Shown: positions 35,833 through 57,097 of the stretch, one piece after another
How positions within the stretch are numbered: position 1 is the stretch's first letter
Layout of the letters: every line of letters begins with the position of its first letter
Source of the DNA: an uncultured Vicingus sp.
Lineage (GTDB): Bacteria > Bacteroidota > Bacteroidia > Flavobacteriales_E > Vicingaceae
Direction: 5' to 3'
DNA: 64,000 bases
NCBI GenBank assembly: GCA_964360245.1
Contig: CAYHWX010000003.1
Span: 2,307-66,306 of the forward strand
Position numbers and translations under genes: made by a program
Notes under the pieces: generated by a model
What the model was told of the DNA's origin: nothing
Databases searched by the model: none
What the model saw: the letters and a program-made list of their open reading frames with translations, nothing else

Positions 35833-35871
35833 AAAATATTTATTAAATAGTTTGTGGTGAATAAAGTAAGC

Positions 35872-35906
35872 TAACAAAAAACTCTAAACCTCGAACTCTA
35901 AACTTT
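35872..35906 (+). repeat. 7-nt-phased (A/G/T)AAC-NNN array (5 units) ending 6 nt before the start codon
   Basis: TAACAAA AAACTCT AAACCTC GAACTCT AAACTTT, with units starting at 35872, 35879, 35886, 35893 and 35900. Confidence 0.8.
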
Positions 35907-35911
35907 ATAAT

Positions 35912-37201: not shown

Positions 37202-37228
37202 TTATTTTAACGACACAAACATTTAACT

Positions 37229-38644: not shown

Positions 38645-38663
38645 TAATTTAATATTTAAAATA

Positions 38664-39518
38664 ATGAGTAGCACTATATATACAATGGGAATCGACGTAG
38701 GTGGAAGTTACGTTAAAGGCGTAATTATGACCTACGACAATGAAACAGGTAATCATAAAATCGTTGATAAACAAACCGAAAAAATTAGAAAAAGAGATCC
38801 AAAAGATGTGGTTGTTGATACGATTGATATGTTATTAGAGCGTAATCATTTAAATTACGATAAAGACATCGCTTATCTTGCTTCCACAGGAGAAGGTGAA
38901 ATGGTTACTAAAAAAACAGGACATTTTTATGGTATGACAACTCACTCACGTGGAGGAATATTTTTTGCACCTGGGGCAAAAACTGTTGTCGATTTGGGAG
39001 GGTTATATGTTAGAGCCATAAAAATTGACGAAAGAGGAAAAGTTATCGATTATAAAATGACTGGTCAATGTGCCTCAGGCTCTGGTCAATTTATTGAAAA
39101 TATATCTAGGTATTTGGGCTTAGCTATTGAAGAAGTTGGTCCAATTTCTTTAAAAGCAGATCACCCAGAAGTACCTTCAGGAATTTGTGCAGTTTTAGCA
39201 GAAACAGATGTAATTAATTTGGTATCGAAAGGACTCTCAACTGCTAATATAGTGAAAGGAATTAATTTATCTATTGCAGGTAGAGCCGTAAAATTATTGG
39301 GAGCTCTTAAAGCAGAATCTCCAATTGCTTTGGTAGGAGGAATGGGAATGAATGTGGGTATGATACAAGCAATTAGAGAGCTATCTCAAGAAAAAGGAAT
39401 TGCAGATTTAGAATTTGTTGCTCATCCTGATGCTATTTATTCTGGTGCTGTTGGTGCTGCTCTTTGGGGAGGTTTTAGATATTATAAATTGAAAGAAAAA
39501 GGTGCTGTGATTGTATAA
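38664..39518 (+). CDS. BcrD/BadG-like ATPase subunit (BadF/BadG/BcrA/BcrD family, short form)
   Basis: 284 aa with MGIDVGGSYVKGV, MTGQCASGSGQFIENI and SGICAVLAETDVI. Confidence 0.7.
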   Translation: MSSTIYTMGIDVGGSYVKGVIMTYDNETGNHKIVDKQTEKIRKRDPKDVVVDTIDMLLERNHLNYDKDIAYLASTGEGEMVTKKTGHFYGMTTHSRGGIFFAPGAKTVVDLGGLYVRAIKIDERGKVIDYKMTGQCASGSGQFIENISRYLGLAIEEVGPISLKADHPEVPSGICAVLAETDVINLVSKGLSTANIVKGINLSIAGRAVKLLGALKAESPIALVGGMGMNVGMIQAIRELSQEKGIADLEFVAHPDAIYSGAVGAALWGGFRYYKLKEKGAVIV

Positions 39519-39542
39519 ATAATAATTCAAATATCTTTATTG

Positions 39543-41678
39543 ATGGAAACAGAAATGAAAAATGAAACAAAAAAAGTAACTGGGGTAACTCATGAATTAG
39601 ATTCTCTTTTCAAACCTAAATCAATTGCCATCATTGGTGCATCATCTAAAGAACTTTCTATAGGAAATGTTATTATCAAAAACTTAGTTCATTTTGGTTA
39701 TACTGGTCCAATCTATCCTATCAATCCGAAAGAACCAGAAATTAGAGGGATTAAAGCCTACCCAACTATATTCGATGTGCCTTATGAGATTGAGGCCGCA
39801 CACATAATCATTCCAAGCAAATTTGTTCCTCAAATAATTGAGGATTGTGGGAAAAAAGGAATAAAATCTGTTATCATCAATTCTGCTGGGTTTAGTGAAA
39901 TGGGCGAAGAAGGAATGGCTTTACAAAAAGCATTTTTAGCAAAAGCAAAAGAATATGGTGTACGTATTTTCGGACCAAATTGTCAGGGAATTATCAATTG
40001 CGACCCTGAATACAATGCCTATTGCGATTTTACTTTTACGTTTCCAAAACCGGGTTCAATTTCAATTGTTGCATTAAGCGGAGGTGTTGGAGCGTTTATT
40101 ATGCAAAGCCTTTTTGATTTAGAAATAGGCATGCGTATGTATGCTTCTAACGGAAATGCCTGCGATGTTTCTATTCCTGATGTGGTAGAATATTACGGTG
40201 AAGACGAAGGAACTAAAGCCATTATTTTATATACAGAAGGATTTTCCAACCCGGCAGCATTTATGGAGGTTGCTAAAAAAGTAGCCAAGAAAAAACCAAT
40301 TCTTGCCATGAAAGCGGGTCGTACCGAAGAAGGTGCAAAAGCTGCGGCTTCACACACAGGCTCATTAGCAGGAGTTGATATCGCAACTGAATTAATTTTT
40401 GAAAAAATAGGCATTCTTACTTTCAATAATGAAGAAGAAATGTGTCAAACTTCCATGGCGTTTGCAACTCAACCTATCCCGAAAGGAAACCGGGTGGGAA
40501 TTATTACCAATACGGGCGGACCCGCAGTTATTGCAACCGACGAATTGGTAAGTGCAGGAATGGTTTTACCTCCGTTATCGGAAAAAGCAAAAAAAGTTTT
40601 AACTGAAACCATGTTGCCAGAAGCGAGCATTAACAATCCTATTGATGTGGTGGCTACTGGTGGTGGACAACATTTTAGAAGTGCGTTAGATGTATTGATG
40701 AACGAAGATACGATTGATTCTATCTACATCAATTTTGTTACTGCACCTTTTACCGATACCGATGAAGTAGCTCGACAAATTGTGGAAGTGAGCAACATGA
40801 AAAAGAAACCGATTGTTTGTAATTTTATGACCAACCAAAGCATGGAGCGTTATCAAATTACCACCAAAATAATGAAAGATGGTGGTGTTCCATGTTATGC
40901 GTTCCCTACTACCGCAGCAAAAGCTTTGGGAGCATTGTACAAATACCATCAAGTGAGTACCCGAAATATTGGTGAAGCAAAAGTTTTTGCAGATGTAAAA
41001 AAAGATAATGCTCTCGCCATCATCAACGAAGCAAAAAAAGAGGGAAAATCTTTCCTTTCTTCTTCTCAGGTTTATAAGTTATTAGCTCAATACGGAATTC
41101 CGGTTGCCGATTGGAGGATAGCCGATTCTATTGATGATGCTGTTAAAGCTGCCGCTGAAATTGGTTTCCCGGTTGTTGTTAAAGCCGATGCCGAATCGTT
41201 GGTTCACAAAAGTGATATGGGCGGAGTTGCCATCAACTTAAAAAATGAAGCAGAAGTTAGAACAGTGGTTGAAAACATGAAAGCCAAATTTAATGCTCCC
41301 GATTTGAAATTCTTTATCCAAAAATTCTTACCCGGAGGCAGAGAATTAATAGCTGGTGTAAGTGCTAAAAAAGATTTAGGGCACTTAATCATGTTTGGTA
41401 TTGGTGGTATTTACGTTGAAGTACTGAAAGATGTAGTTTTTAAAATTGCACCAGTTACTGAAGTTGAAGCCAACGAAATGCTTACCAAAATTAAAGCAGC
41501 AAAATTATTAGATGGCGTTCGTGGAGAAAAAGGAATTGATAAAAAAAGTGTTATTGAAATTATTCAACGGTTATCGCAATTAGTTGTCGATTTACCAATG
41601 ATTCAAGAAATGGATTTAAACCCCATCATGGCTTTTGAAGATAAAGCTTTTGTGGTGGATGCTAGAATTAAAATTTGA
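39543..41678 (+). CDS. NDP(ADP)-forming acyl-CoA synthetase, fused alpha-beta (acetate--CoA ligase family)
   Basis: N-terminal CoA-binding domain (KSIAIIGASSK), phospho-His loop AASHTGSLAG and a C-terminal ATP-grasp domain. The track start 39540 is a TTG; the ATG is at 39543. Confidence 0.8.
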   Translation: METEMKNETKKVTGVTHELDSLFKPKSIAIIGASSKELSIGNVIIKNLVHFGYTGPIYPINPKEPEIRGIKAYPTIFDVPYEIEAAHIIIPSKFVPQIIEDCGKKGIKSVIINSAGFSEMGEEGMALQKAFLAKAKEYGVRIFGPNCQGIINCDPEYNAYCDFTFTFPKPGSISIVALSGGVGAFIMQSLFDLEIGMRMYASNGNACDVSIPDVVEYYGEDEGTKAIILYTEGFSNPAAFMEVAKKVAKKKPILAMKAGRTEEGAKAAASHTGSLAGVDIATELIFEKIGILTFNNEEEMCQTSMAFATQPIPKGNRVGIITNTGGPAVIATDELVSAGMVLPPLSEKAKKVLTETMLPEASINNPIDVVATGGGQHFRSALDVLMNEDTIDSIYINFVTAPFTDTDEVARQIVEVSNMKKKPIVCNFMTNQSMERYQITTKIMKDGGVPCYAFPTTAAKALGALYKYHQVSTRNIGEAKVFADVKKDNALAIINEAKKEGKSFLSSSQVYKLLAQYGIPVADWRIADSIDDAVKAAAEIGFPVVVKADAESLVHKSDMGGVAINLKNEAEVRTVVENMKAKFNAPDLKFFIQKFLPGGRELIAGVSAKKDLGHLIMFGIGGIYVEVLKDVVFKIAPVTEVEANEMLTKIKAAKLLDGVRGEKGIDKKSVIEIIQRLSQLVVDLPMIQEMDLNPIMAFEDKAFVVDARIKI

Positions 41679-41704
41679 AAATTAATCAATTTGTTAGTTC
41701 GAGT

Positions 41705-41725
41705 GCCACACCTTTATTGTGTGGC
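41705..41725 (+). other. hairpin GCCACAC-cctttatt... GTGTGGC in the spacer after the acyl-CoA synthetase gene
   Basis: 7-bp G/C-containing stem with a 7-nt loop, flanked by a 5-bp outer stem (AGTTC/GAACT). No U-tract follows. Confidence 0.35.
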
Positions 41726-41751
41726 GTATCGAGAACTTAAAAATAAAAACT

Positions 41752-42987
41752 ATGGAACAAGAAAAAAAACCTTACAAAATTGAATCAGCAAAATTGATGA
41801 AGAAAATAATGGGAGATTATTTTCTAGGTTTTAAAGATACCAAGAAAAAAATTGCTTGGTGTACCAGTGTTGGTCCTGCTGAATTATTACGATCTTTTGG
41901 ATTTGAAGTGCATTTTCCAGAAAATCATGGAGCATTGTTAGGTGCAACACGAACTGCTAACGATTTTATTCCTGAGGCCACTAAATTGGGGTATTCGAAT
42001 GATATTTGCTCTTATTTAACAGCAGATTTGGGCTCCTACATGTTAAAGCAAACACCATTACAAGAACATTATGGATTAGAAGGTCCTCCAAAACCAGATT
42101 TGATTGTCTATAATACCAATCAATGCAGAGAGGTACAAGATTGGTTTACTTATTTTGCTAGAGAATTTAACTGTCCAATTTATGGAATAAGACCTCCACG
42201 ACATGTTGATGAAGTGACTCAAAGTGATATTGAAGATGTTGCCACTCAATTTAAAGGAATGATTCCAATGTGTGAAAAAGCAAGTGGAAATAAATTTGAT
42301 ATGGAGAAATTTAGAGAAACGATTAGATTAAGTAAAGAAGCTACTGATTTATGGAAAGAGGTATTATGGACTGCAACATCTTCACCTTCGCCCATCAGCT
42401 TTTTTGATGCTACTATTCACATGGGCCCAATTGTAGTTTTAAGAGGCACTCAAGTTGCCAAAGATTATTACACAACACTTTTAAATGAATTAAAAGGAAA
42501 CATTGATAAAGGTATCGGATTTATTGAAGACGAAAAATGTAGAATTTATTGGGATGGAATGCCAATTTGGGGTAAACTTAGACCGCTCTCCGAATTGTTT
42601 CTTCAAAATGGGGCAGCTGTGGTTGCTTCAACATACTGTAACAGTTGGGTTTTTGATGCATTTGATCCAAAACATCCTTTCGAATCTTCAGCCAAAGCAT
42701 ATACAGAGATTTTTATCAATAGAAGTGAAGAAGCCAAAGAAAAATTATTAATTGCATTAGTTAAAGATTTTCGAATAGATGGAATAATTTTCCATGATGC
42801 CAAAACTTGCTTCAATAACTCTAATTCTAACTTCGGAATGCCTCAACGAATTACTGCTAAATTGGGTATTCCAACTTTAATTATTGAAGGCGATTTGTGT
42901 GATTTACGTTTTTATTCAGAAGGTCAGAGCATTACTAAAATTGAAACTTTTATAGAGCAGATTGTAGATGCTAAAGTAACTTGTTAA
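41752..42987 (+). CDS. single-copy BCR/2-hydroxyacyl-CoA dehydratase family subunit (possibly double-cubane-cluster-protein-like)
   Basis: 411 aa from the ATG at 41752 (the track start 41719 is a GTG inside a hairpin). KIAWCTSVGPAELLRSFGFEVHFPENHGA plus multiple conserved-looking Cys residues. No second core subunit is adjacent. Confidence 0.6.
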   Translation: MEQEKKPYKIESAKLMKKIMGDYFLGFKDTKKKIAWCTSVGPAELLRSFGFEVHFPENHGALLGATRTANDFIPEATKLGYSNDICSYLTADLGSYMLKQTPLQEHYGLEGPPKPDLIVYNTNQCREVQDWFTYFAREFNCPIYGIRPPRHVDEVTQSDIEDVATQFKGMIPMCEKASGNKFDMEKFRETIRLSKEATDLWKEVLWTATSSPSPISFFDATIHMGPIVVLRGTQVAKDYYTTLLNELKGNIDKGIGFIEDEKCRIYWDGMPIWGKLRPLSELFLQNGAAVVASTYCNSWVFDAFDPKHPFESSAKAYTEIFINRSEEAKEKLLIALVKDFRIDGIIFHDAKTCFNNSNSNFGMPQRITAKLGIPTLIIEGDLCDLRFYSEGQSITKIETFIEQIVDAKVTC

Positions 42988-42991
42988 GTTA

Positions 42992-43456
42992 ATGAAAAAA
43001 AGTAACAACATACCAAATTTTAATCCATCAATTGACGGAGGAAAACTTTCTGCTCAAGAAATTACTACTTTACTAAAAACAACTTGTAATTATGTTGATT
43101 ATGTTGAATTTACACAAAATAATAAAGAGCAATTGGTAGCGTTAATTTTCCCTAATAAGCAACTATTAAAAAACCCTGATTATCAAAAAACCCCTGAAGA
43201 AGGATGTTTTTGTCCACGAAATTTGGATGAGGTTGGCAGATGTTTAACAGGTTGTTTAAAAAAGGCAAATGCTGATTTAACCAACAAAAAAACGCCTATT
43301 TCTTTAGCTATTATTGTTGGTGAAAAATATACTGCTGAAAATGGAAAATTAACCGATTTAGGAGTCGAAAAAATTAAAAACATCATTGACCAACATAAAA
43401 ACCATTCCGCTGTTGATGATGTGTATATTATTGATTTGGAAACAACAATGGGCTAA
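42992..43456 (+). CDS. hypothetical Cys-rich protein
   Basis: 154 aa with a CxC-x9-C-x3-C motif (EEGCFCPRNLDEVGRCLTGC). Tightly packed between the two neighbouring genes. Confidence 0.45.
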   Translation: MKKSNNIPNFNPSIDGGKLSAQEITTLLKTTCNYVDYVEFTQNNKEQLVALIFPNKQLLKNPDYQKTPEEGCFCPRNLDEVGRCLTGCLKKANADLTNKKTPISLAIIVGEKYTAENGKLTDLGVEKIKNIIDQHKNHSAVDDVYIIDLETTMG

Positions 43457-43479
43457 ACCCCCATGTCAAAACGAATAAA

Positions 43480-45348
43480 ATGAGTAAAAAAAATAAAATA
43501 CGTGTTGGCGTTATCGGTCTTGGACCTGTTGGGATGATATTGGCTGTAAAATTACAGGAAGCAGGTTGTGAGGTGGCTTTGTGCGAAGTAAACGAAGTAA
43601 AAGCCAATAAAATTAAAACCGAAGGATTGATACTTGAAAATGTAATCCAGCAAAAAGCAAAATTCGACAAAGTACACACTTCTATTGCAGAACTTGAAGG
43701 TTGGGATGCTGATTATTTGTTTTTTGCATTAAAGTCAAACCAAACTGCTATTGCTGTTACACAATCTCAAATCTTGAATACCGAAAAATTAACTGTAATT
43801 TCTGCACAAAATGGAATAGACGTTGAACAATTATTGGTAGCTGGCTTTGGAGAAAATAAAACCATGCGTTTTGTAGTTAATTTTGCTGGAAATTCTTCCT
43901 CACCAAATACTACAAAAGTTACTTTTTTTACACCACCAAACTATATCGGTTCTATTAATGATACGTGTGCAAATAAAGCAAAAGAAATTGCCGATTTATT
44001 AACTTCAGTTTCTTTAGATACAAAAGCTACCGACTCTTTTGAATTGCTAAAAAGAATTTGGGAAAAAACAATCTTAAACGCAGCACTTAGTCCGTTATGT
44101 GGTGTAAGTCGTTTAACTATGGCTGAAGCCATGAGCGACCACGACACTGTTGAATTAATTGAACAAATAATAAAAGAAGGAATTGATGTAGCTGAAGCAG
44201 AAAAAATTCGTTTTCCCGATGATTTTGTTCGTCAATGTATGCGTTATCTCAAAAAAGGTGGCGACCACTTTCCTTCACTTGCCGTAGATTTAATAAATAA
44301 TCGTCCTACAGAAATTGATTACTTTAATGGTAAAATTGTAGAATACGGTCGTAAACATTACGTACGAACTTCATTAAATTTGGCATTTACCAACATGGTG
44401 AAAGCCATGACCAACAAAAATATTGTTTCCAGAATTCCTGGTGCTACAGGCGATGTTAATAAAAAAATTCTCGGCAAAGGATTAATAAACAAAGAATACG
44501 ATCCAACTTCACATAAAAATGAACAATGCTTTTTAGGTATCGATTTGGGTTCTGCTTATGCTAAATTTAGCATTGTTGACGAAAAAGGAACAATTATTTT
44601 TAGATACTTTTTGCCATCGCTGGGTAACGATAAACAAGCGTTTAAGAATGTAATGCAAACCATTGCTACCAACTTTAATATCAAATACAGTTGTGCTACA
44701 GGTTATGGTCGAAAACATTTCACAGAAACTGATATTGTTAAAACTGAAATAAACTGTGCTGCAGTAGGCGTTTCATATTTTCATAAAGGCGAAAAAAATA
44801 TTATTGACATCGGAGGTGAAGACATTAAAGTGATTCATTGTGATAAAGATAATAATGTGGCAAACTTTTACATGAACGACAAGTGTGCAGCAGGAACTGG
44901 CTCATTTTTAGCCGAAATTGCAGAAAGAGTAAATATCAATATTGCAGACATGAGTAGCTTAGCATCACTCTCAAAATACGACAAAGAATTGAATAGTTTT
45001 TGTACTGTTTTTGCCAAAACAGAAATTATGAATTGGATTTTTGATGGCATGTCGTTAGAGGATATTTCTAGAGGTATTTATATTTCTATTGCCAACAAAG
45101 TAGCTAAAATGCGTTTAGATGCTGGTGTTCCAACTTTTATGATTGGCGGCGTTGTGGAGCATCATCCTTATCTAAAAGACCTTTTAAACGAAAAATTTAA
45201 TAAAAACATTCAAATTATTGAACATCCGCAATATACTGTATCTTTTGGTGCAGCAATTGTTGCTATGCAAAATTTTAATAAGGGGAAAGGGGCAGACGAA
45301 AGGGACGAGGGAAAGGTAAATCTCGAAACTCTAATTCCCAAACTCTAA
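43480..45348 (+). CDS. fusion protein: ketopantoate-reductase (ApbA/PanE) family oxidoreductase + BadF/BadG/BcrA/BcrD-type activase ATPase
   Basis: The N-terminal 310 aa carry VGVIGLGPVG, IWEKTILNA and SLAVDLINNRPTEIDYFNG (PanE signature). After a linker of about 45 aa, the C-terminal 270 aa carry LGIDLGSAYAKF, MNDKCAAGTGSFLAEI and NSFCTVFAKTEIM (HgdC-like activator). Confidence 0.7.
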   Translation: MSKKNKIRVGVIGLGPVGMILAVKLQEAGCEVALCEVNEVKANKIKTEGLILENVIQQKAKFDKVHTSIAELEGWDADYLFFALKSNQTAIAVTQSQILNTEKLTVISAQNGIDVEQLLVAGFGENKTMRFVVNFAGNSSSPNTTKVTFFTPPNYIGSINDTCANKAKEIADLLTSVSLDTKATDSFELLKRIWEKTILNAALSPLCGVSRLTMAEAMSDHDTVELIEQIIKEGIDVAEAEKIRFPDDFVRQCMRYLKKGGDHFPSLAVDLINNRPTEIDYFNGKIVEYGRKHYVRTSLNLAFTNMVKAMTNKNIVSRIPGATGDVNKKILGKGLINKEYDPTSHKNEQCFLGIDLGSAYAKFSIVDEKGTIIFRYFLPSLGNDKQAFKNVMQTIATNFNIKYSCATGYGRKHFTETDIVKTEINCAAVGVSYFHKGEKNIIDIGGEDIKVIHCDKDNNVANFYMNDKCAAGTGSFLAEIAERVNINIADMSSLASLSKYDKELNSFCTVFAKTEIMNWIFDGMSLEDISRGIYISIANKVAKMRLDAGVPTFMIGGVVEHHPYLKDLLNEKFNKNIQIIEHPQYTVSFGAAIVAMQNFNKGKGADERDEGKVNLETLIPKL

Positions 45349-45374
45349 ACACGAAACATTGAACTTTAAACTTA
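45326..45374 (+). repeat. 7-nt-phased AAAC-NNN array (7 units) spanning the stop codon of the fusion gene
   Basis: AAACTCT AATTCCC AAACTCT AAACACG AAACATT GAACTTT AAACTTA, preceded by a purine-rich stretch (45281-45320). Confidence 0.8.
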
Positions 45375-45380
45375 ATTAAT

Positions 45381-47399
45381 ATGGCTTATCAATTCAAAAA
45401 TTTAAACATCAACAAACTAACTGTTATTGGTGCCGGTCAAATTGGACCAGACATTTGTTTACACTTTGCAAAAGTGTTTGTAAAAAACAATGTTGAATTT
45501 GTAATTATCGATATTTCTCCAGAAGCATTGGCGAATGCTAAGGCAAAAATTGAAAAGAAAATTAGTAAAGGCGTTGAAACAGGAGCTTTTAAAGCCGATG
45601 TGGCTGAAATGATGAACAAAAGTATTACGTATTCATCGGATTACAATTTAATAAAAGGATCTGGAATTGTGTTAGAAGCAGCAACCGAAGATGGCAGAAT
45701 TAAAGACCTTATTTTTAAACAAGTTGAAGCGTTGACAGACGATTCTTGTTTGTTTTTGTCTAATTCTTCACACATGACACCTGAAGTTATTTTTAGAAAC
45801 ATTGCTAACAAAAAAAGATGTTTAGTTACACATTATTTTTTCCCTGCAGATAGAAATCCTATTGTAGAAGTAGTTCCTGGAAAAGATACCAACCCTCAAA
45901 TTACAGCAGACTTAATGGTTTTTTATGAAGTAATTGGTAAAGTGCCTATTGAAGTAAAGAGTTCTTATGGTTATGCAATTGATCCTATTTTTGAAGGATT
46001 GTGTGAATTGGCAGTTCTTTGTTTAGAGAAAGGTTATGGCACCATTAAGGAAATTGATAAAATGGCTCAAAAAAATCTGCGACAAGGTGTTGGACCATTT
46101 ACTGCTTTAAATTTAACTGGTGGTAATCCAATTACTGATCATGGATTAACTGAATTACATGAAACACATATACCATGGTTTAGATCTCCCAAAACTTTAA
46201 AAGAAGCTGTAGCAAATGGAACATTATGGGAAACAGCAAAAAGAGGTGAAGAAGTAGTTGTTGACCCAGCCAAAGCCGAAGTGTTAAGAAAACAGCTTTT
46301 GGGAGGATATTTTGCGTTGACTTGCCATATCCTAGATTTGGGAATAACAAACGTTAATGATTTAGATATGGCAGCAGAAATTGCTTTGGCAATGGCTGCA
46401 CCATTTACATTAATGAATAAAATTGGAATTGACGAAGCTCATGCAATAGTTAAAGAATGGTGCCAAGAACACACAGAATTTCCTTTTCCAAAATCATTAG
46501 ATAAAGCTAGATCTGATGGTGGATGGACAGTTTCAAGAATAGTAGCGAAGAATAAGGAAGGCATTGCTGTATTAACTATTAGAAGACCACAAGTGTTAAA
46601 CGCTTTAAATATTGCTGTATTAAAGGAATTAAAAGTTGAAATAGAAAAAGCAGAAAAAGACACCAACATTAAAGGTATAGTTATAACAGGATTTGGAACA
46701 AAAGCATTTGTTTCTGGAGCCGATATAAACATGTTGGCTGCTTTAAAAACTCCAGAAGAAGGATATAATAATTCTCATACTTTTCAGCAGTTAATAAATA
46801 CTATAGAAGATTGTAAAAAACCAACTGTTTGTGCCTTAAATGGATTTGCTTTTGGCGGTGGAAACGAATTGGCAATTACTTGCACTGCCAGGGTTGCTAA
46901 AAAAGGATTGCCAGTTGTAGCTTGTCAGCCCGAAGCTAACTTAGGGTTTATTCCGGGTTCTGGAGGTACACAGCGTTTACCACGATTAGTTGGGGTTGAT
47001 ATTGCTGCAGAAATACTTCGAACAGCTCGCCCAGTATCTGGAAAAGAGGCTCTAGAAATAGGTTTAATTGATCTAGAAATTGAAGGAGACTTAATTGAAG
47101 GTGCCGTTGAATACACTAAAAAATTAATAAAAGGTGAAATTCAACCTCGCAAATTCGTAACTACTGGAACCAAAGAGAGTTTATCACCAAAAGAAATTAA
47201 TATCGGTCATTTGAGTAAAAAAATTGACCACATCATGAATAAAGCGATTTACGACGGAATTAAACTTCCATTAAACGAGGCGTTGGAGTTGGAATCAAAA
47301 CTTTTTGGCGAATGTATTTTAACCGATGACATGAAAATTGGCTTGAATAATTTTTTAACCAACGGACCAAGAGCTAAAGCAGAATTTAAACATAAATAG
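45381..47399 (+). CDS. bifunctional 3-hydroxyacyl-CoA dehydrogenase (N-terminal) / enoyl-CoA hydratase (C-terminal)
   Basis: N-terminal Rossmann LTVIGAGQIGPDI. C-terminal crotonase motifs FVSGADI and NGFAFGGGNELA. The domain order is reversed relative to FadB. Confidence 0.8.
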   Translation: MAYQFKNLNINKLTVIGAGQIGPDICLHFAKVFVKNNVEFVIIDISPEALANAKAKIEKKISKGVETGAFKADVAEMMNKSITYSSDYNLIKGSGIVLEAATEDGRIKDLIFKQVEALTDDSCLFLSNSSHMTPEVIFRNIANKKRCLVTHYFFPADRNPIVEVVPGKDTNPQITADLMVFYEVIGKVPIEVKSSYGYAIDPIFEGLCELAVLCLEKGYGTIKEIDKMAQKNLRQGVGPFTALNLTGGNPITDHGLTELHETHIPWFRSPKTLKEAVANGTLWETAKRGEEVVVDPAKAEVLRKQLLGGYFALTCHILDLGITNVNDLDMAAEIALAMAAPFTLMNKIGIDEAHAIVKEWCQEHTEFPFPKSLDKARSDGGWTVSRIVAKNKEGIAVLTIRRPQVLNALNIAVLKELKVEIEKAEKDTNIKGIVITGFGTKAFVSGADINMLAALKTPEEGYNNSHTFQQLINTIEDCKKPTVCALNGFAFGGGNELAITCTARVAKKGLPVVACQPEANLGFIPGSGGTQRLPRLVGVDIAAEILRTARPVSGKEALEIGLIDLEIEGDLIEGAVEYTKKLIKGEIQPRKFVTTGTKESLSPKEINIGHLSKKIDHIMNKAIYDGIKLPLNEALELESKLFGECILTDDMKIGLNNFLTNGPRAKAEFKHK

Positions 47400-47401
47400 T
47401 T

Positions 47402-47494
47402 GGAAGATGGGAGTCGGAAGACCGAAGATGGGAGTTGGAGGGGTGAGTGAAAGGGGCAATGGCAAAAAAACTTTGCGTCTTTGCGTCTTTGCGA
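47402..47494 (+). repeat. composite low-complexity spacer: 21-nt-period purine repeat plus three tandem CTTTGCG(T/A) octamers
   Basis: GAAGATGGGAGT occurs at 47403-47414 and again at 47424-47435. CTTTGCGT CTTTGCGT CTTTGCGA lies at 47471-47494, followed by AAACTCTAAAC at 47511-47521. Confidence 0.8.
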
Positions 47495-47528
47495 GAAAAT
47501 AATTAGCTAGAAACTCTAAACTAAACAG

Positions 47529-49685
47529 ATGAAATACAAAATTGGCATAGATGTAGGAGGAACCTTTACCGACTTTTTTTTAGTCGCTGATAATGGGGAT
47601 TCGTTAATTCATAAAACGCTTTCTACCCCTCAAGATTCTTCAGAAGGATTTATTACCGGGTTAAAGGAAATGGCAGAGAAGCTAAATTTGCCGGTTGCTG
47701 AGTTTATTGACAACATCGATACCATTGTTCATGGAACTACTGTGGCCACCAATGCATTATTGACGTTAGGCGGAGCAAAAACTGCTTTAATTACCACTAA
47801 AGGGTTTAGAGATGCGTTAGAAATGCGAAGAGGTATTCGCGAAGAACGATATGATAATCATTACAAAAACGTAACACCTTTAGTTCCCAGATATTTACGA
47901 TACACAATAAATGAAAGAGTTGATGCGATTGGAACTATTTTACACTCAATTGATTTTACTGAATTAGATGCTATCGTTTCAAAAATAAAAGAGGAAGACG
48001 TAAAAGCAGTTGCCATCTGTTTTATGAATTCTTATTTGAACAGTGAAAATGAAAAAATAGCCACTGAATATCTTAGAAAAGCATTACCAAACACTTATAT
48101 TTCTGCATCTTATGAAGTTTTGCCATCTGTTCGTTTTTACGAAAGGGTTAGTACTACCGTAGTAAATGCATACATTGGTGTAGTAGTAGATTCCTATTTA
48201 AAATCATTATTAGCAAAACTCAAAAAACTCAATTTCAACGGTAAATTGATGATTATGCAATCGAACGGAGGCGTTGTAACTCCCGAAATTGCAGGTAAAA
48301 TTGCTGCCGTAGCCGTTCTTTCCGGTCCTGCTGCTGCACCTATTGCTGGTGCATATTATGCCAATTTATTGGGATATGATAATTGCATTACCATGGATAT
48401 GGGAGGCACCAGTTTTGATGCTTCTTTGGTGGTAAACAAACAGTGTGTTACCAGTACCTATGCCGATATTGATAGATACCGAGTGGCATTACCCACATTA
48501 GATATTATTACCATTGGTGCAGGTGGAGGAAGTATTGGATGGGTGGACAATGGAGGATTATTGCAAATGGGACCCAAAAGTGCAGGTTCTTTACCCGGAC
48601 CAATTTCATACCATAGAGGTGGTGAAAAACCTACTTGTACTGATGCTGATTTAATACTTGGATATCTAGACCCCAATTTTTTTGCCGGAGGTAAGTATAA
48701 ACTGAACAAAGAAAAAACAATAGAAGTAACAGAAAAAAGCCTAGGAAAAAATCTTGGTTTAAATGCTGTAGAAGTTGCTGCAGGAATGTACCGTGTCATC
48801 AACATGAACATGGCTCAAGGTGTTCGTCAGGTTTCGGTAGAAAGAGGTTACGACCCAAGAGAATTTTTAATGATTTGTGCAGGAGGAGCAGGTTCAATTC
48901 ATGCAGGTGAAATTTGTCGTGAGTTAGAAATACCAATGTTTGTTGTTCCAAGTGTAGCACCAATTTTTTGTGCAGCGGGCATGTTGTTAGGCGATTTAAA
49001 ACACGATTATGTTCGGTCGTACATGACAAAATTCTCTGGTTTAGATAAAGTTGCTTTCTTGAAATTGTACGATGAAATGAAAGCTGAATCTGTCAAAACA
49101 TTGATTGCTGAAGGAATTACAGAAGATAAAATCCAATTTATACCATCATTAGATTTAAGGTACATTGGTCAATACCACGAAGTTCCTTTAGAAGTTTCGA
49201 TGGACGATGTTTATGGTTTTAATCTGGAAGCCATAAAAAATGCGTTCCATAAAGAACACAGTCGTCAATTTGGTTATGATTTAAAAGTAGAAGGCACAGA
49301 ATTAGAAGTCATTAACATTCGATTTAGGGCAGTTGGCATAACTGAAAAACCACATTCATTATCTGGGAACATCACAAAAGGAGCTAATACATTACAAGAA
49401 GCTTTGAAAGGAAGAAGAATGGCTTATGTACCCGAAAAAAATGAAATGCAGGAAGTTCCTGTTTACGATGGTGACATCTTAAACAGCAATTTTAAAATAA
49501 ATGGGCCAGCCATTATCGAACAAGTAAATACCACTGTTTTTTTAGGCGAAAACTATAACTGCGAAACAGGAATTGGAGGTGCATTTATTGTTTATAACAA
49601 AATTTTAATGCCTGATGGGTTTAAAAAGTTTAAAGTTTCGAGTTCAGAGTTAAAGAAACTCGAAACTTTAAACACGAAACTCTAA
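47529..49685 (+). CDS. hydantoinase/oxoprolinase family protein, A-type (HyuA-like)
   Basis: N-terminus KIGIDVGGTFTDFF and the internal motif MDMGGTSFD. 718 aa. Confidence 0.85.
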   Translation: MKYKIGIDVGGTFTDFFLVADNGDSLIHKTLSTPQDSSEGFITGLKEMAEKLNLPVAEFIDNIDTIVHGTTVATNALLTLGGAKTALITTKGFRDALEMRRGIREERYDNHYKNVTPLVPRYLRYTINERVDAIGTILHSIDFTELDAIVSKIKEEDVKAVAICFMNSYLNSENEKIATEYLRKALPNTYISASYEVLPSVRFYERVSTTVVNAYIGVVVDSYLKSLLAKLKKLNFNGKLMIMQSNGGVVTPEIAGKIAAVAVLSGPAAAPIAGAYYANLLGYDNCITMDMGGTSFDASLVVNKQCVTSTYADIDRYRVALPTLDIITIGAGGGSIGWVDNGGLLQMGPKSAGSLPGPISYHRGGEKPTCTDADLILGYLDPNFFAGGKYKLNKEKTIEVTEKSLGKNLGLNAVEVAAGMYRVINMNMAQGVRQVSVERGYDPREFLMICAGGAGSIHAGEICRELEIPMFVVPSVAPIFCAAGMLLGDLKHDYVRSYMTKFSGLDKVAFLKLYDEMKAESVKTLIAEGITEDKIQFIPSLDLRYIGQYHEVPLEVSMDDVYGFNLEAIKNAFHKEHSRQFGYDLKVEGTELEVINIRFRAVGITEKPHSLSGNITKGANTLQEALKGRRMAYVPEKNEMQEVPVYDGDILNSNFKINGPAIIEQVNTTVFLGENYNCETGIGGAFIVYNKILMPDGFKKFKVSSSELKKLETLNTKL
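49628..49673 (+). repeat. perfect 17-bp inverted repeat (hairpin) at the 3' end of the HyuA-like gene
   Basis: GTTTAAAGTTTCGAGTT (49628-49644) is the exact reverse complement of AACTCGAAACTTTAAAC (49657-49673). The loop is 12 nt. Confidence 0.9.
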
Positions 49686-49696
49686 ACTAAAAACTG
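49656..49696 (+). repeat. 7-nt-phased AAAC-NNN array (6 units) running into the next start codon
   Basis: AAACTCG AAACTTT AAACACG AAACTCT AAACTAA AAACTG, then the ATG at 49697. Confidence 0.85.
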
Positions 49697-51373: not shown

Positions 51374-51413
51374 AACACAGGTGCAGATGATTATAATTAA
51401 ATATGAAAATTTT

Positions 51414-52976: not shown

Positions 52977-53005
52977 ACTTCTAAACGCATAAACTCTATA
53001 CTAAA

Positions 53006-53410
53006 ATGAATACACACGAAACAATATTACCCGAAGGTTGGTCAACTCCTAAAGGATATGCGAATGGAATATTAGCTGCAAAAGGAAGAACGTTGTTTTT
53101 AGCCGGACAAGTTGGATGGTCTCCCGAAGAGAAATTTGCAAGTGAGAAATTGGTTCCTCAATTTGAACAAGCGTTAAAAAATATTGTTGCTATTGTTGAA
53201 AAAGCAGGAGGAAAACCTACAGACATCTGCAAAATGACCTGTTTCTGTAAAGATAGAACTCAATATTTAGCAACTAGAAGTGAGCTTGGTACAATATGGA
53301 AAAATATTATGGGAAAACATTATCCATGCATGAGTATGATTTTCGTAGTGGATTTACTAGACCATCCGGCATTAATAGAAATCGAAGCAACAGCAGTTAT
53401 TGCTGATTAG
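53006..53410 (+). CDS. RidA/YjgF/UK114 family protein
   Basis: 134 aa with YANGILAAKGRTLFLAGQVG and C-terminal LIEIEATAV. Confidence 0.75.
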   Translation: MNTHETILPEGWSTPKGYANGILAAKGRTLFLAGQVGWSPEEKFASEKLVPQFEQALKNIVAIVEKAGGKPTDICKMTCFCKDRTQYLATRSELGTIWKNIMGKHYPCMSMIFVVDLLDHPALIEIEATAVIAD

Positions 53411-53457
53411 TTAAGAGTTTAAAGTTATGGCAATAGTTAAAAAATTTGAATTAGACA

Positions 53458-53492
53458 AAACTCGAAACAGTAAACTCAAAACTCTAAACTAG
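53458..53492 (+). repeat. 7-nt-phased AAAC-NNN array (5 units) upstream of the acyl-CoA dehydrogenase gene
   Basis: AAACTCG AAACAGT AAACTCA AAACTCT AAACTAG. An inverted GTTT-phased fragment (GAGTTTAAAGTT) lies at 53415-53426. Confidence 0.8.
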
Positions 53493-53496
53493 TAAA

Positions 53497-57094: not shown

Positions 57095-57097
57095 AAA

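Follow-up and report, generated by a model that had tools for sequence, protein, structure and literature searches.

Genes of the locus

The window, a stretch of 64,000 nt from an uncultured Vicingus sp., contains the features listed in Table 1. BcrC, BcrB, BcrA and BcrD make up a complete Thauera-type class I benzoyl-CoA reductase. The BcrA-like subunit reached 431 bits on TIGR02259, under the cut-off of 578, in two matched stretches. The Crp/Fnr-type regulator directly upstream of the operon, assigned by its sequence and its likeness to two other Crp-like ORFs of the window, is probably an anaerobic regulator, and a homologue is found in some related loci. Also encoded in the operon are Had (458 bits) and Oah (574 bits), both bona fide, together with a thiolase, a 3-hydroxyacyl-CoA dehydrogenase/enoyl-CoA hydratase (HCDH/ECH) and a KGOR-like oxidoreductase. 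The HCDH::ECH fusion follows PanE::activase in several loci and a thiolase takes this place in others. The window showed neither an aminotransferase nor any other gene for the formation of arylpyruvates.

Table 1. Positions in the window of the genes and protein domains discussed in the text
Feature	Positions	Strand	Size or residues	Basis
Crp/Fnr-type regulator	33567-34274	+		
BcrC, gamma subunit of benzoyl-CoA reductase	34648-35832	+		TIGR02263 426.2 bits (cut-off 421); PF06050
BcrB, catalytic beta subunit of benzoyl-CoA reductase	35912-37201	+		TIGR02260 635.9 bits (cut-off 487)
BcrA-like ATPase subunit, internal insertion	37229-38644	+	471 aa	PF01869 E 3e-69
BcrD-like ATPase subunit	38664-39518	+		TIGR02261 299.8 bits (cut-off 313); PF01869
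ADP-forming (NDP-forming) acyl-CoA synthetase	39540-41678	+	712 aa	CoA_binding_2, Succ_CoA_lig, ATP-grasp_5
HGD-D protein, single alpha-type (catalytic-subunit-type) HAD/BCR-family [4Fe-4S] protein	41752-42987	+	411 aa	PF06050 HGD-D E 6e-65
Stand-alone AMP-binding (AMP-ligase) C-terminal domain	42992-43456	+	154 aa	invariant CxCx9Cx3C motif
PanE::activase fusion ORF	43480-45348	+	622 aa	
PanE/ApbA (ketopantoate-reductase-family) NAD(P)H oxidoreductase domain	43480-44415	+	residues 1-312	TIGR00745
Inter-domain linker	44416-44529	+	residues 313-350	
HgdC/HadI-type ATP-dependent activase ('archerase') domain and variable tail	44530-45348	+	residues 351-598 (domain)	TIGR00241
3-hydroxyacyl-CoA dehydrogenase::enoyl-CoA hydratase (HCDH::ECH) fusion, directly downstream of PanE::activase	45381-47399	+		3HCDH_N, 3HCDH, ECH_1

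Lineage-specific joining of PanE and activase

A preliminary description of the window had named three ORFs of 411, 154 and 622 aa; these are present where it placed them, and the six motifs that it quoted all occur in the translation. The 622-aa ORF carries the Pfam domains ApbA (residues 9-158), ApbA_C (189-310) and BcrAD_BadFG (352-595), and its proposed division into PanE and activase was borne out by scores above the curated cut-offs of both TIGR00745 apbA_panE (168.6 bits; cut-off 141) and TIGR00241 CoA_E_activ (173.1 bits; cut-off 125). The fusion is genuine and not a sequencing artefact. The junction is gap-free in an alignment of 78 full-length orthologues from species-level genomes, and an independent ENA groundwater assembly encodes a protein identical over all 622 aa, again with the same 154-aa ORF in front of it. 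Relatives are encoded in ~149 species-level genomes, and both domains together with a length of ~615 aa recur in >120 protein clusters (70-90% identity). No function has been assigned to the arrangement in the source protein names or the literature searched, which agrees with the earlier statement that it was not recognised as described. The module of the fusion, a single-subunit Fe-S enzyme and a CoA ligase is itself undescribed and occurs in operons for the anaerobic degradation of aromatic rings in many uncultured Bacteroidota.

The linker is without gaps in the 78 sequences, and its top residues have an average frequency of 0.65. At the position of the linker, the unfused PanE and activase genes of the loci L088-L090 overlap by 4 nt. 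The 622-aa protein is the lineage-specific product of a fusion between neighbouring genes with coupled translation, and the fusion alone, which had been read as a sign of a coupled mechanism, is no evidence of a new one.

In the PanE domain, G13-x-G15-x-x-G18, N111, K196, N200, S266, D270 and E278 are invariant among the 78 sequences. We take the last six to be N98, K176, N180, S244, D248 and E256 of E. coli ketopantoate reductase (KPR), of which S266, N111, K196 and E278 presumably represent the KPR-type residues binding the substrate carboxylate and ketone. The best PDB matches were 8wl1 and 3wfi, the latter presumably D-mandelate dehydrogenase, and the E. coli enzyme scored far lower. The PanE family is known for the reduction of 2-oxo acids. 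In the activase domain, C469, C508 and the ASKHA-motif residues D355, G357, G445, G446 and D448 are invariant; from what is known of HgdC, we take C469 and C508 to be ligands of the bridging cluster.

Related loci keep the order BcrCBAD, CoA ligase, HGD-D, PanE::activase almost without exception. The fusion is immediately preceded by HGD-D in 71 of 74 loci, and BcrB, BcrA and BcrD lie upstream of it in 48 of 51; BcrC is likewise kept upstream of the module. The conserved module comprises a CoA ligase, the C-terminal ligase domain with its Cys4 motif, one alpha-type HGD-D protein, a PanE-family reductase and an HgdC-type activase, and it directly follows bcrCBAD in operons for benzoyl-CoA degradation in MAGs of Bacteroidota, Ignavibacteriota and Chlorobiota. 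The family III CoA-transferase at ~62.7 kb, previously noted as an enzyme needed in 2-hydroxyacyl-CoA dehydratase pathways, is not a conserved neighbour, the conserved CoA-activating enzyme being the ligase directly upstream. HGD-D, PanE and activase are unfused abutting genes with overlapping stops and starts in L087-L090, while P0264/L084 encodes a PanE::HGD-D fusion and a separate activase. In L086, a 45%-identical PanE::activase is followed by Had, Oah, Dch and thiolase. Since the same parts recur unfused and, independently, in two fused states, HGD-D, PanE and activase form one functional unit; on this ground, the functional coupling suggested earlier stands.

PanE also occurs in other settings. 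In P0268, a PanE::ECH fusion with the domain order of the HCDH::ECH of the window adjoins ETF alpha, and L023 and L083 retain PanE::activase and thiolase pairs without HGD-D or bcr. These cases suggest that PanE may act on CoA esters of beta-oxidation and not on free 2-oxo acids.

PanE might accordingly be a beta-oxidation 3-hydroxyacyl-CoA dehydrogenase paired with the following thiolase, with 3-hydroxy-3-arylpropionyl-CoA or 3-hydroxypimelyl-CoA as candidate substrates; PanE and activase would then have been joined by chance as neighbouring genes, without mechanistic coupling, and HGD-D and activase would be an independent two-component enzyme. Besides P0268, L023 and L083, this reading is favoured by the lack of any other 3-hydroxyacyl-CoA dehydrogenase in the visible 15 kb of the L088/L089 operon and by the gene overlap, because loss of a stop codon easily fuses overlapping genes. 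We consider it rather unlikely, since PanE has been fused separately to both components of the radical enzyme, in another lineage directly to HGD-D (P0264), which would hardly be expected of an unrelated protein. The invariance of the presumed KPR-type carboxylate and ketone residues and the presence of HCDH::ECH in many loci also argue against it.

The HGD-D protein and its neighbours

The HGD-D protein is a catalytic alpha-type member of its family, nearest to HadB. HadB (3o3m_A) was its best PDB sequence match (E 9e-49; E 1e-58 in a profile search), followed by MbdO and BzdO, and the AF2 model (pLDDT 82) gave TM values of 0.87-0.90 with HadB, 0.82-0.86 with MbdO/BzdO, 0.75 with DCCP and 0.68 with beta/gamma subunits. 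The cluster cysteines are kept: C86, C125 and C353 align with Cys95, Cys128 and Cys380 of BzdO, the three cluster ligands of that protein (PMC11971306), and the PEN(H) glutamate is also retained (cf. PMC11971306). C37 and C296 are likewise invariant. C37 is common to MbdO and the BcrB of the window but is absent from HadB, and the position of BzdO His131 is occupied by Val, as in HadB-like sequences.

The preliminary description had likened this protein to the double-cubane cluster proteins, that is, to a DCCP-like homodimeric [8Fe-9S] reductase with a dedicated ATPase. A single subunit beside its own activase would suit such an enzyme, seven cysteines are kept in ≥95% of the 72 nearest members of the family, and C296 and C353 align with C309 and C374 of DCCP. 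However, NF040772 gave a match of 58 bits (cut-off 350) that was confined to the C-terminal half, the spacing CX19CX18-19CX29CX166-170CX32-34CX32C was not found in the HGD-D protein, C174 and C383 are missing from P0264 and L086, which are more remote orthologues, and the fold is nearer to HadB, MbdO and BzdO. The analogy is therefore extremely improbable.

No beta-type partner gene for the HGD-D protein is present in cis in the window. Exactly three members of the family, BcrC, BcrB and the HGD-D protein, are encoded in the window and in 42 of the 44 loci >20 kb. The view of HGD-D as a lone subunit thus holds in that no extra beta-type gene accompanies it, but only locally, since the complete BcrCBAD is encoded on the same strand 2-7 kb upstream. 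HGD-D could in principle be an alternative catalytic subunit working with BcrC, with a PanE::activase homodimer replacing BcrAD, to give a second aryl-CoA reductase of other substrate range. The constant company of alpha-type and gamma-type genes in one operon and the 163 bits of HGD-D on the BcrB model would agree with this. Such a pairing is nevertheless very improbable, because HGD-D occurs without BcrC within 10 kb in L084 and L017, PanE::HGD-D of L084 shares its operon only with its own activase, and HGD-D is nearer to HadB than to BcrB.

The 154-aa ORF had been labelled Cys-rich. The ORF is real, but it has five Cys and is a stand-alone C-terminal domain of an AMP ligase. A Pfam search of it returned no match. 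A 585-aa AMP ligase of locus L001 shares 37% identity with it over residues 429-574 of the ligase (E 4e-35), and its fold weakly matches the C-terminal domains of adenylate-forming enzymes. Stand-alone homologues of ~150 aa occur in Bacteroidota MAGs, some matching PF23562. C72, C74, C84 and C88 are invariant in all 79 stand-alone and ligase-borne copies, and C32 is conserved in 78 of them. Those stand-alone forms that the alignment shows lack the lysine of the A10 motif 'LTPSMK', and the adenylation function of the domain has probably been lost.

A 575-599-aa AMP-forming ligase, only distantly related to any characterised enzyme, occupies the ligase position in 37 of the 50 typed loci. In the window and other 'type A' loci, the CoA-activating enzyme of the module is the ADP-forming synthetase, whose best NCBIfam match was 4-hydroxybutyrate-CoA ligase (546 bits, under its cut-off). 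Where this synthetase replaces the ligase, the ligase C-terminal domain persists as a separate gene, suggesting that CoA activation is physically tied to the HGD-D enzyme.

Possible functions of the module

We tentatively favour an ATP-activated ketyl-radical 2-hydroxyacyl-CoA dehydratase system that feeds an aryl-C3 acid into benzoyl-CoA, the substrate being assigned by gene context. The PanE domain would reduce a 2-oxo acid with NAD(P)H to the (R)-2-hydroxy acid, or would act later in the same pathway as a hydroxyacyl-CoA dehydrogenase, and the adjacent ligase would form the CoA ester. The activase domain, dimerised around a bridging [4Fe-4S] cluster and supplied by ferredoxin or flavodoxin, would, upon ATP hydrolysis, inject an electron into HGD-D at its three-Cys [4Fe-4S] cluster. 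With (R)-2-hydroxyacyl-CoA bound via its thioester carbonyl, HGD-D would carry out the dehydration by the ketyl-radical route of HadBC/FldBC, and the electron would be recycled. Beta-oxidation of the presumed enoyl-CoA by the HCDH::ECH fusion, together with thiolase, would yield benzoyl-CoA, the substrate of BcrCBAD. Judged by context, the likeliest substrates are phenylpyruvate/phenyllactate and the corresponding 4-hydroxy compounds, from which cinnamoyl-CoA and 4-coumaroyl-CoA would arise. The Had, Oah, thiolase, HCDH/ECH and KGOR-like oxidoreductase of the operon and the Mo enzymes adjoining the module in L084, L086 and L088 speak for this reading as pathway context. Against it stand the lack of an arylpyruvate-forming gene in the window, the remote relation of the ligase to characterised enzymes and the cases of P0268, L023 and L083. 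Moreover, if the sole ligase of the operon serves the 2-hydroxy acid, the cluster is left without a benzoate-CoA ligase, and thiolase and HCDH/ECH, which would argue for side-chain shortening, are required by the lower benzoyl-CoA pathway in any case.

The HGD-D protein scored 214 bits for HadB and 163 bits on the BcrB model; the distance to BcrB/MbdO is thus not much larger, which leaves room for a reductase. HGD-D would then be an ATP-driven BCR-like reductase of a substituted benzoyl-CoA or an alicyclic intermediate, for example in the dehydroxylation or deamination of 2-amino-, 2-hydroxy- or 3-hydroxybenzoyl-CoA, and PanE would reduce the resulting keto tautomer or ready the alcohol for vinylogous ketyl elimination. 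We know of no gene assigned to the reductive deamination of 2-aminobenzoyl-CoA, which speaks for this reading, as does the position of the module in the window between bcr and an iaa-like gene set whose expected product is that compound. It also draws on the constant embedding of the module in bcr operons, the Mo enzymes adjoining it in L084, L086 and L088 (best match, 4-hydroxybenzoyl-CoA reductase alpha), the structural closeness of the reductase alpha-type subunits MbdO and BzdO, the shared C37, and the DCCP/DCCP-R system, in which a homodimeric activase drives stoichiometric reduction (PMC7317905). It is unlikely, however, since HadB came out first in the sequence, profile and fold comparisons. 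The Val at the His131 position points the same way, but weakly, since MbdO and BcrB also lack this His. Moreover, the 2-oxo-acid reduction typical of the PanE family better suits a dehydratase pathway, and BcrCBAD itself is reported to accept several substituted benzoyl-CoAs.

The hydroxyglutarate route might also run in reverse: HGD-D would hydrate glutaconyl-CoA of the lower pathway to (R)-2-hydroxyglutaryl-CoA, and after de-esterification PanE would form 2-oxoglutarate, whose oxidation by the 2-oxoacid:ferredoxin oxidoreductase of the operon would supply BcrCBAD with the two reduced ferredoxins required for each ring. The inferred stoichiometry agrees, as each ring would give one glutaryl-CoA and from it one 2-oxoglutarate and two reduced ferredoxins, and a KGOR-like or OFOR-type oxidoreductase is present in the same operons. 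The cluster has no dedicated ferredoxin gene, as judged from most loci, where no ORF of at least 45 codons has even one CxxCxxCxxxC motif, and the CoA-transferase of the window best matched, below threshold, succinate-glutarate CoA-transferase. This route is nonetheless quite improbable: it leaves the tie of the ligase and its C-terminal domain to HGD-D unexplained, the acyl-CoA dehydrogenase of the window has the IaaF-type GGG motif and not that of glutaryl-CoA dehydrogenase, and central metabolism supplies 2-oxoglutarate anyway. To our knowledge, no PanE-family enzyme uses 2-hydroxyglutarate.

All characterised 2-hydroxyacyl-CoA dehydratases known to us are alpha/beta heterodimers, and the absent beta gene speaks against the favoured forward dehydratase reading. 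Its place is probably taken by homodimerisation of HGD-D; the Cys4 ligase domain could possibly serve as an adaptor instead, with FldA of the FldABC complex as a parallel. As a precedent, the conversion of phenylpyruvate via phenyllactyl-CoA and cinnamoyl-CoA into benzoyl-CoA has been suggested as a pathway of an anaerobic respirer, in which the dehydratase is given as 'unassigned dehydratase' (PMC13416013). The alpha subunit HadB is closest to HGD-D by sequence and fold, and the activase domain, whose best PDB matches were HadI (4eht; E 3e-38), MbdQ and HgdC (1hux), is nearest to HadI and HgdC.

Operon and surroundings of the fusion gene

The three open reading frames between 41752 and 45348 have the coordinates, sizes and domains that the preliminary description assigned to them, and every motif quoted there for the 622-aa protein was found in its translation. 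This protein joins a ketopantoate-reductase (PanE) domain to an HgdC/HadI-type activase (PanE::activase). The first of the three encodes a BCR/HAD-family protein, here HGD-D, which had been taken as a lone subunit. It is not lone but the third family member in one operon, because BcrC and BcrB, overlooked earlier, are encoded upstream on the same strand. The bcr genes and the synthetase upstream of HGD-D lie on one strand with short intergenic gaps. A promoter and terminator scan of 33.5-53.4 kb gave counts at or below the shuffle expectation, with a tool whose models contain no Bacteroidota promoters.

Features of the window in and around the operon that contains the fusion gene
Feature	Coordinates	Strand	Properties
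Respiratory gene region	11478-32299		
BcrC	34648-35832	+	TIGR02263 426 bits, above cut-off
BcrB	35912-37201	+	TIGR02260 636 bits, above cut-off
BcrA-like gene	37229-38644	+	score just below cut-off
BcrD-like gene	38664-39518	+	score just below cut-off
ADP-forming acyl-CoA synthetase	39540-41678	+	712 aa
HGD-D ORF	41752-42987	+	411 aa, PF06050
Small ORF	42992-43456	+	154 aa, no Pfam match
PanE::activase ORF	43480-45348	+	622 aa; ApbA + ApbA_C residues 9-310, BcrAD_BadFG residues 352-595
Indoleacetate-like gene set	45381-63959		
Secreted repeat protein	51381-52976		531 aa
Acyl-CoA dehydrogenase	53497-54624		motif LIGGGTSEI
HMG-CoA-synthase-like fusion	57098-59682		

A search of 5.8 billion proteins gave more than 120 clusters of the fusion at 70-90% identity, all of about 615 aa with both domains, and their source names were only '2-dehydropantoate 2-reductase' or 'activating ATPase'. 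The fusion family is widespread, being present in roughly 150 species-level genomes (149 relatives with one genome per GTDB species). The best 80 of these 149 were almost all from metagenome-assembled genomes (MAGs) of Flavobacteriales (Vicingaceae, Crocinitomicaceae), Saprospiraceae, Chitinophagaceae, Ignavibacteria and Chlorobiota. The junction was gap-free in an alignment of 78 full-length sequences, in which the mean top-residue frequency was 0.73-0.88 within the domains and fell to 0.65 across the linker. An independent groundwater assembly contained the identical 622-aa protein preceded by the same 154-aa ORF. A frameshift or stop between the two domains is ruled out by the gap-free orthologues and the second assembly, and the continuous ORF proposed earlier stands as one unbroken protein. 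When the full-length architecture was clustered at 50%, it formed a compact family with few more representatives (P0241, 56% identity; P0242, 45%; P0244, 39%). Literature searches for this architecture, or for bcr clusters in Bacteroidota or Ignavibacteria, returned nothing relevant; the arrangement is, as had been suspected, without description in searchable papers or source annotations.

The ORFs of 80 loci were labelled by similarity to the proteins of the window. HGD-D immediately preceded the fusion in 71 of the 74 loci with room for it, and BcrB, BcrA and BcrD were upstream in 48 of the 51 loci whose upstream sequence reached 8.5 kb or more. In the 13 typable loci of type A, which include the window, an ADP-forming synthetase is followed by HGD-D, an ORF of ~150 aa and the fusion; in the 37 typable loci of type B, an AMP-forming ligase of 575-599 aa is followed by HGD-D and the fusion without the small ORF. 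The parts list of this module (CoA ligase, HGD-D, PanE and activase, after the bcr genes), its conservation and its linkage are matters of direct observation. Downstream of the module in the type B locus L001 are genes for a thiolase, Had (TIGR03201, 458 bits), Oah (TIGR03200, 574 bits), a Dch-like hydratase, an HCDH/ECH fusion and a two-subunit KGOR-like oxidoreductase, the Had and Oah scores being above the cut-offs. The L001 operon reads as one for the Thauera-type benzoyl-CoA pathway into which a further module has been placed behind bcrD. Had, Oah and Dch of this pathway were not found within the 64-kb window; among related loci, L001 and L086 have Had and Oah with scores above cut-off. 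The fusion was also seen apart from its usual neighbours: L023 (10001-13115) and L083 (1199-4310) have no adjacent HGD-D or bcr gene and only a thiolase after the fusion, and in L082 (1164-2993, 39% identity) it is solitary, with NifU and cysteine desulfurase genes nearby and again no adjacent HGD-D or bcr.

The bcr clusters of Thauera, Azoarcus and Rhodopseudomonas contain a dedicated ferredoxin gene, unlike most of these loci. Within ~10 kb around the module (34648-51373 in the window), in most loci no ORF of 45 codons or longer contained so much as a single CxxCxxCxxxC motif; small ORFs with two such motifs were present only in L071 and L081 (85 and 98 codons). The idea that the module supplies electrons in place of the missing ferredoxin was set aside, since PanE has no one-electron cofactor and KGOR-like enzymes are already present in the operons. 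Next to these enzymes, the module might run a hydroxyglutarate route in reverse and give 2-oxoglutarate for ferredoxin reduction, which we regard as improbable.

The gene set that follows the module in the window is closely like the anaerobic indoleacetate (iaa) set of Aromatoleum. It includes an HCDH::ECH fusion, hydantoinase A/B-like genes (best matches caprolactamase alpha and beta), a RidA-like gene, an acyl-CoA dehydrogenase, a 2-oxoacid:ferredoxin oxidoreductase, an HMGS-like::DUF35 protein with an SCP-type thiolase, the small and large subunits of a B12 mutase, and a family III CoA-transferase. The set follows the module also in L004, L015, L038, L043 and L051, and partly in L010, L067, L074 and L087. 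The active-site motif of the acyl-CoA dehydrogenase has GGG where most family members have YEG, and GGG has been reported as the hallmark of IaaF, a benzylmalonyl-CoA dehydrogenase of the decarboxylating kind (PMC8360864). The CoA-transferase, at 62766 (62.7 kb), had been counted as a component of the pathway; it was rejected as a part of the system because it is not conserved alongside the module, and it belongs to the downstream iaa-like set. Amid the catabolic genes lies one for a secreted repeat protein with a C-terminal sorting-like tail of type IX secretion (Por). The HMG-CoA-synthase-like domain is fused to a Cys-rich C-terminal region like a DUF35-type zinc ribbon/OB fold, a region that was assigned by eye, the model match covering the N-terminal part only. 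Its gene overlaps the start of the SCP-x-type thiolase gene by 4 nt, an arrangement that recalls the archaeal thiolase/HMGCS/DUF35 complex and BbsAB. The respiratory region of the window encodes a cbb3-type oxidase (fused CcoNO, CcoP, CcoG) and a NarG-like molybdopterin oxidoreductase accompanied by NarJ- and NarI-like proteins, along with several Crp/Fnr-like regulators and, on the minus strand, two MFS (NarK-like) transporters. The host seems to be a Flavobacteriales-like organism that lives microaerobically and respires nitrate, probably a facultatively anaerobic, nitrate-respiring Vicingaceae-like bacterium of groundwater.

Class, cysteines and partners of HGD-D

HGD-D matched PF06050 with 220.5 bits (cut-off 28.4). 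The closest sequence was HadB, the alpha subunit of 2-hydroxyisocaproyl-CoA dehydratase (phmmer E 9e-49, family profile E 1e-58), followed by MbdO (1e-46) and BzdO (1e-28), whereas HadC and BzdN were marginal and the double-cubane cluster protein (DCCP) matched the C-terminal half only (E 4e-5). The AF2 model of HGD-D (pLDDT 82, pTM 0.86) showed TM values of 0.87-0.90 to HadB, 0.82-0.86 to MbdO and BzdO, 0.75 to DCCP, and 0.68 to the beta/gamma-type subunits HadC, BzdN and MbdN. The HadB equivalog model NF052455 was the best match, yet with 214 bits against a cut-off of 750 HGD-D is not an equivalog; it reached 163 bits with BcrB TIGR02260 (cut-off 487) and 96 bits with BzdO TIGR03191 (cut-off 449).

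C86, C125 and C353 of HGD-D align with Cys95, Cys128 and Cys380 of BzdO, and E57 with Glu65, and all four residues are invariant in 72 sequences. The three cysteines of BzdO are the ligands of the substrate-facing [4Fe-4S] cluster, which is coordinated in the same way in HadB (PMC11971306). The alignment suggested earlier thus finds the three ligand positions present in HGD-D. HGD-D could also be reductive, dehydroxylating or deaminating substituted benzoyl-CoAs; HadB is nearer than BzdO in sequence and model, and we consider a reductive role unlikely.

Among the 72 closest HGD-D relatives, seven Cys positions show at least 95% conservation, with spacings of X48, X38, X48, X121, X56 and X29. 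The 7-Cys motif of DCCP is CX19CX18-19CX29CX166-170CX32-34CX32C (PMC7317905). The DCCP-like reading raised in the preliminary description did not survive: a DCCP-type double cubane was rejected because the spacing is unlike this motif, the NF040772 score was 58 against a cut-off of 350 bits, covering the C-terminal half only, and the fold is farther than that of HadB. C296 aligns with C309 of DCCP, and we rate the DCCP reading as exceedingly improbable. C37 and C296 are conserved throughout, C37 being Cys also in MbdO and in BcrB of the window. A second cubane built from C37, C296, C383 and C174 and replacing a beta subunit is a weak proposal; at most C37 and C296 could be general, because P0264 and L086, which are more distant orthologues, have lost C174 and C383.

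HMMs of BcrC, BcrB and HGD-D were run on each locus, against all ORFs of 100 aa or longer from its six-frame translation. No additional HGD-D-family ORF beyond BcrC and BcrB was detected near the module (~10 kb) or in the 64-kb window, and a hidden beta subunit was therefore rejected. Exactly three members were present in the window and in 42 of the 44 loci longer than 20 kb; L084 had one only. The 2-hydroxyacyl-CoA dehydratases are recognised by alpha and beta subunits encoded side by side, and HGD-D has no such neighbour. The HMM search and the alpha-type class together indicate a catalytic-type subunit without a beta partner encoded in cis. To our knowledge, such a subunit is undescribed for 2-hydroxyacyl-CoA dehydratases. 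HGD-D might instead swap subunits with BcrC, which is encoded in the same operon; we hold this to be quite improbable, and L084 keeps a single family member.

PanE, activase and ligase parts in fused and separate forms

The 622-aa protein scored 168.6 bits against TIGR00745 (apbA_panE, cut-off 141.35) and 173.1 bits against TIGR00241 (activase, cut-off 125.4). In 78 sequences the PanE domain has invariant GxGxxG glycines (G13, G15, G18) as well as N111, K196, N200, S266, D270 and E278, which presumably correspond to N98, K176, N180, S244, D248 and E256 of E. coli KPR. With the catalytic residues of KPR matched, the PanE domain looks catalytically competent. Its best PDB matches were 8wl1 (69 bits) and 3wfi (62 bits), the latter of which we take to be D-mandelate dehydrogenase; E. 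coli PanE gave 25 bits, and the PanE equivalog models (NF0050xx-type) were all below their cut-offs. The context of the domain is an aromatic catabolic operon, not pantothenate synthesis. In the activase domain, C469 and C508, assumed here to coordinate the inter-subunit [4Fe-4S] cluster, and the ASKHA motifs D355, G357 and G445-D448 are invariant in the same number of sequences, and the domain matched HadI, MbdQ and HgdC best among PDB entries.

Other arrangements of the same parts were drawn from the 50%-cluster library and neighbourhood look-ups. In L088-L090 the genes are unfused, in the order BcrB, BcrA, BcrD, AMP ligase, HGD-D (400 aa), PanE (321 aa) and activase (265 aa), followed by thiolase, Had, Oah, Dch and then a Mo enzyme, with overlapping start and stop codons. 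L087 is also unfused (ADP-synthetase, HGD-D, PanE, activase, hydantoinase A/B). In L084, the 728-aa protein P0264 is a PanE::HGD-D fusion, followed by a separate 244-aa activase and a three-subunit enzyme of the xanthine-dehydrogenase family. Its HGD-D domain keeps C37, C86, C125, C296 and C353 and the motifs KIAWCTSVGPAELL, FPENH and VVASTYCNSW, and by these residues it is clearly orthologous to HGD-D of the window. P0242 (L086), the 45%-identical PanE::activase, is followed by Had, Oah, a Dch-like protein, SDR, thiolase and a 4-HBCR-like Mo enzyme. The recurring split and fused states indicate that PanE, a single HGD-D and the activase constitute one functional unit, and the 622-aa protein is a fusion, specific to its lineage, of two neighbouring genes that are coupled in translation.

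A further fusion, P0268 (L085, 1341-3200), joins PanE to ECH and adjoins an ETF alpha gene; its PanE domain is 32% identical to that of the window (BLASTP), and it hints that the PanE clade may act on CoA esters. This PanE::ECH fusion and the pairs of fusion and thiolase in L023 and L083 favour the view that PanE is merely a beta-oxidation dehydrogenase paired with thiolase. The activase in the same polypeptide and the HGD-D fused to PanE in P0264 speak against it, and we find this view rather unlikely.

Mo enzymes of the xanthine-dehydrogenase family adjoin the module in three architectures (L084 10001-16757, L086 6998-9738, L088 12379-15378). In the two loci scored, the best NCBIfam match was the 4-hydroxybenzoyl-CoA reductase (4-HBCR) alpha subunit, with 733 bits in L084 and 805 bits in L086, below the cut-off of 995, and the Mo enzymes could be 4-HBCR or indoleacetate-type hydroxylases.

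The 154-aa protein encoded before the fusion is 37% identical (E 4e-35) to residues 429-574, the C-terminal domain, of the type B AMP ligase. Stand-alone homologues are present in many Bacteroidota contigs, and some match PF23562 (AMP-binding_C_3). C72, C74, C84 and C88 (CxCx9Cx3C; Cys4 domain) are invariant in all 79 free and ligase-borne copies and C32 is kept in 78 of the 79, whereas the A10 'LTPSMK' lysine is kept in the ligase-borne copies shown and lost from the stand-alone copies shown. The AF2 model of the 154-aa protein (pLDDT 72) had weak matches to C-terminal domains of adenylate-forming enzymes, and a structure search with it gave no match covering the Cys4 site. The motif is located in an insertion of the AMP-ligase C-terminal domain (L001 ligase 7040-8797, C-terminal 150 aa). 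It is a possible Zn or Fe-S site, without counterpart in solved adenylate-forming enzymes. In type A, the AMP ligase has been replaced by the ADP-forming synthetase and the Cys4 domain has been retained in the module as a separate gene, which argues for a role beyond adenylation, e.g. metal binding or docking. The closest solved relatives of the ligase are all distant (E ~1e-28; oxalate-, malonyl-, feruloyl-CoA and o-succinylbenzoate ligases), and benzoate-CoA ligase is among its weakest matches.

Proposed working of the module and known systems

A pathway was built from the consensus function of each family. A dimer of the activase domain would hydrolyse ATP and pass a low-potential electron to the three-Cys cluster of HGD-D, which would carry out ketyl-radical chemistry on a CoA ester. 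PanE would reduce a 2-oxo acid to the (R)-2-hydroxy acid, the ligase would form its CoA ester, HGD-D would dehydrate the ester to the enoyl-CoA, and ECH/HCDH and thiolase would beta-oxidise the product. Aryl-C3 acids are the most economical substrates, since bcr genes stand on one side of the module and beta-oxidation genes on the other, and since it recurs beside 4-HBCR-like enzymes. Phenylpyruvate or phenyllactate and their 4-hydroxy forms are candidates, which would give cinnamoyl- or coumaroyl-CoA and then (4-hydroxy)benzoyl-CoA. Our tentative preference is for an ATP-activated 2-hydroxyacyl-CoA dehydratase that feeds aryl-C3 acids to benzoyl-CoA, although we put it at somewhat short of an even chance. 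A sulfate reducer has recently been hypothesised to use the same route, with an 'unassigned dehydratase' (PMC13416013). The fuller version, a self-sufficient single-subunit ketyl-radical dehydratase without beta, with its own PanE and ligase and serving a previously unrecognised aryllactate route to benzoyl-CoA, is possible but doubtful. In such an enzyme, homodimerisation or the invariant Cys4 domain would supply the electron relay or docking. The route would run from phenylpyruvate/phenyllactate via cinnamoyl-CoA to benzoyl-CoA in anaerobically respiring Bacteroidota and Ignavibacteriota, and would bypass the phenylacetyl-CoA alpha-oxidation of denitrifying Proteobacteria.

Class I BCR operons of Bacteroidota and Ignavibacteriota are widespread in groundwater, lake and wastewater MAGs and are usually read as plain benzoate degradation, but nearly all carry this extra ATP-dependent radical-enzyme module, unexplained by annotation. 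If it is a dehydratase, it would let C6-C3 acids from plants or aromatic amino acids enter the anaerobic benzoyl-CoA pathway by a new route, and no earlier member of the 2-hydroxyacyl-CoA dehydratase branch would be alpha-only, which makes it a test of the need for the beta-subunit relay cluster. As a reductase, it might be among the dehydroxylating or deaminating aryl-CoA reductases that have long been missing. The fusion states (PanE::activase, PanE::HGD-D, ligase::Cys4 versus free Cys4) give clear hypotheses on the interacting proteins.

The proposed working is like that of HadI/HadBC or FldI/FldABC, with HGD-D outside the bounds of both dehydratase definitions (equivalog score and heterodimer) and of those for BcrB/BzdO and DCCP. 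The part types are those of LdhA/HadA/HadI/HadBC of C. difficile (3o3m, 4eht): an NAD(P)H-dependent 2-oxo-acid reductase, a CoA-activating enzyme, an ATP-dependent activator and an HGD-D [4Fe-4S] dehydratase, with HGD-D nearest to HadB, sharing its three Cys ligands, and the activase nearest to HadI. The Had system, however, has the beta subunit HadC, which the module lacks. Its reductase is of the D-2-hydroxyacid-dehydrogenase family, whereas that of the module is of the PanE/KPR family and fused to the activator; CoA activation is by a family III CoA-transferase instead of an ATP-dependent ligase (ADP- or AMP-forming), and the context is Stickland fermentation instead of a respiratory benzoyl-CoA operon. 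The chemistry proposed here, aryllactyl-CoA to cinnamoyl-CoA, would resemble that of Clostridium sporogenes FldABC and FldI. The CoA-activating FldA is physically part of the dehydratase complex (PMC13416013), and FldA in FldABC may be an analogue of the C-terminal domain of the module's ligase. FldBC is heterodimeric and its product is reduced to phenylpropionate, whereas the proposed product of the module would be beta-oxidised to benzoyl-CoA.

Class I BCRs (BcrCBAD, BzdNOPQ, MbdONQP; 8s02, 9g87, 9gai) have both components of the same superfamily as the module, with a catalytic three-Cys [4Fe-4S] cluster plus Glu and an ATPase bridging cluster as predicted for the module, but they contain two core subunits and a BcrAD-type heterodimer, whereas the module has one core subunit and a homodimer-type activase. 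The operon of the module itself encodes a genuine BcrCBAD. DCCP/DCCP-R and E. coli YjiM/YjiL resemble the module in having a single core subunit and a dedicated homodimeric ATPase reductase; DCCP is a cluster IV sequence with the 7-Cys motif, whereas HGD-D is of the catalytic-subunit type (cluster III) without it. A further difference from DCCP lies in the N-terminal helix and intermediate domain, which make up the CoA-ester channel of BzdO and HadB and are predicted as helices in the model of HGD-D. The KPR-family D-2-hydroxyacid dehydrogenases (3wfi, Lactococcus PanE) have the fold and the invariant catalytic Lys/Glu/Asn/Ser in common with the PanE domain. The PanE clade differs from them in being fused to an activase (window), to HGD-D (P0264) or to an enoyl-CoA hydratase (P0268), and the substrate of the PanE domain may be a CoA ester.
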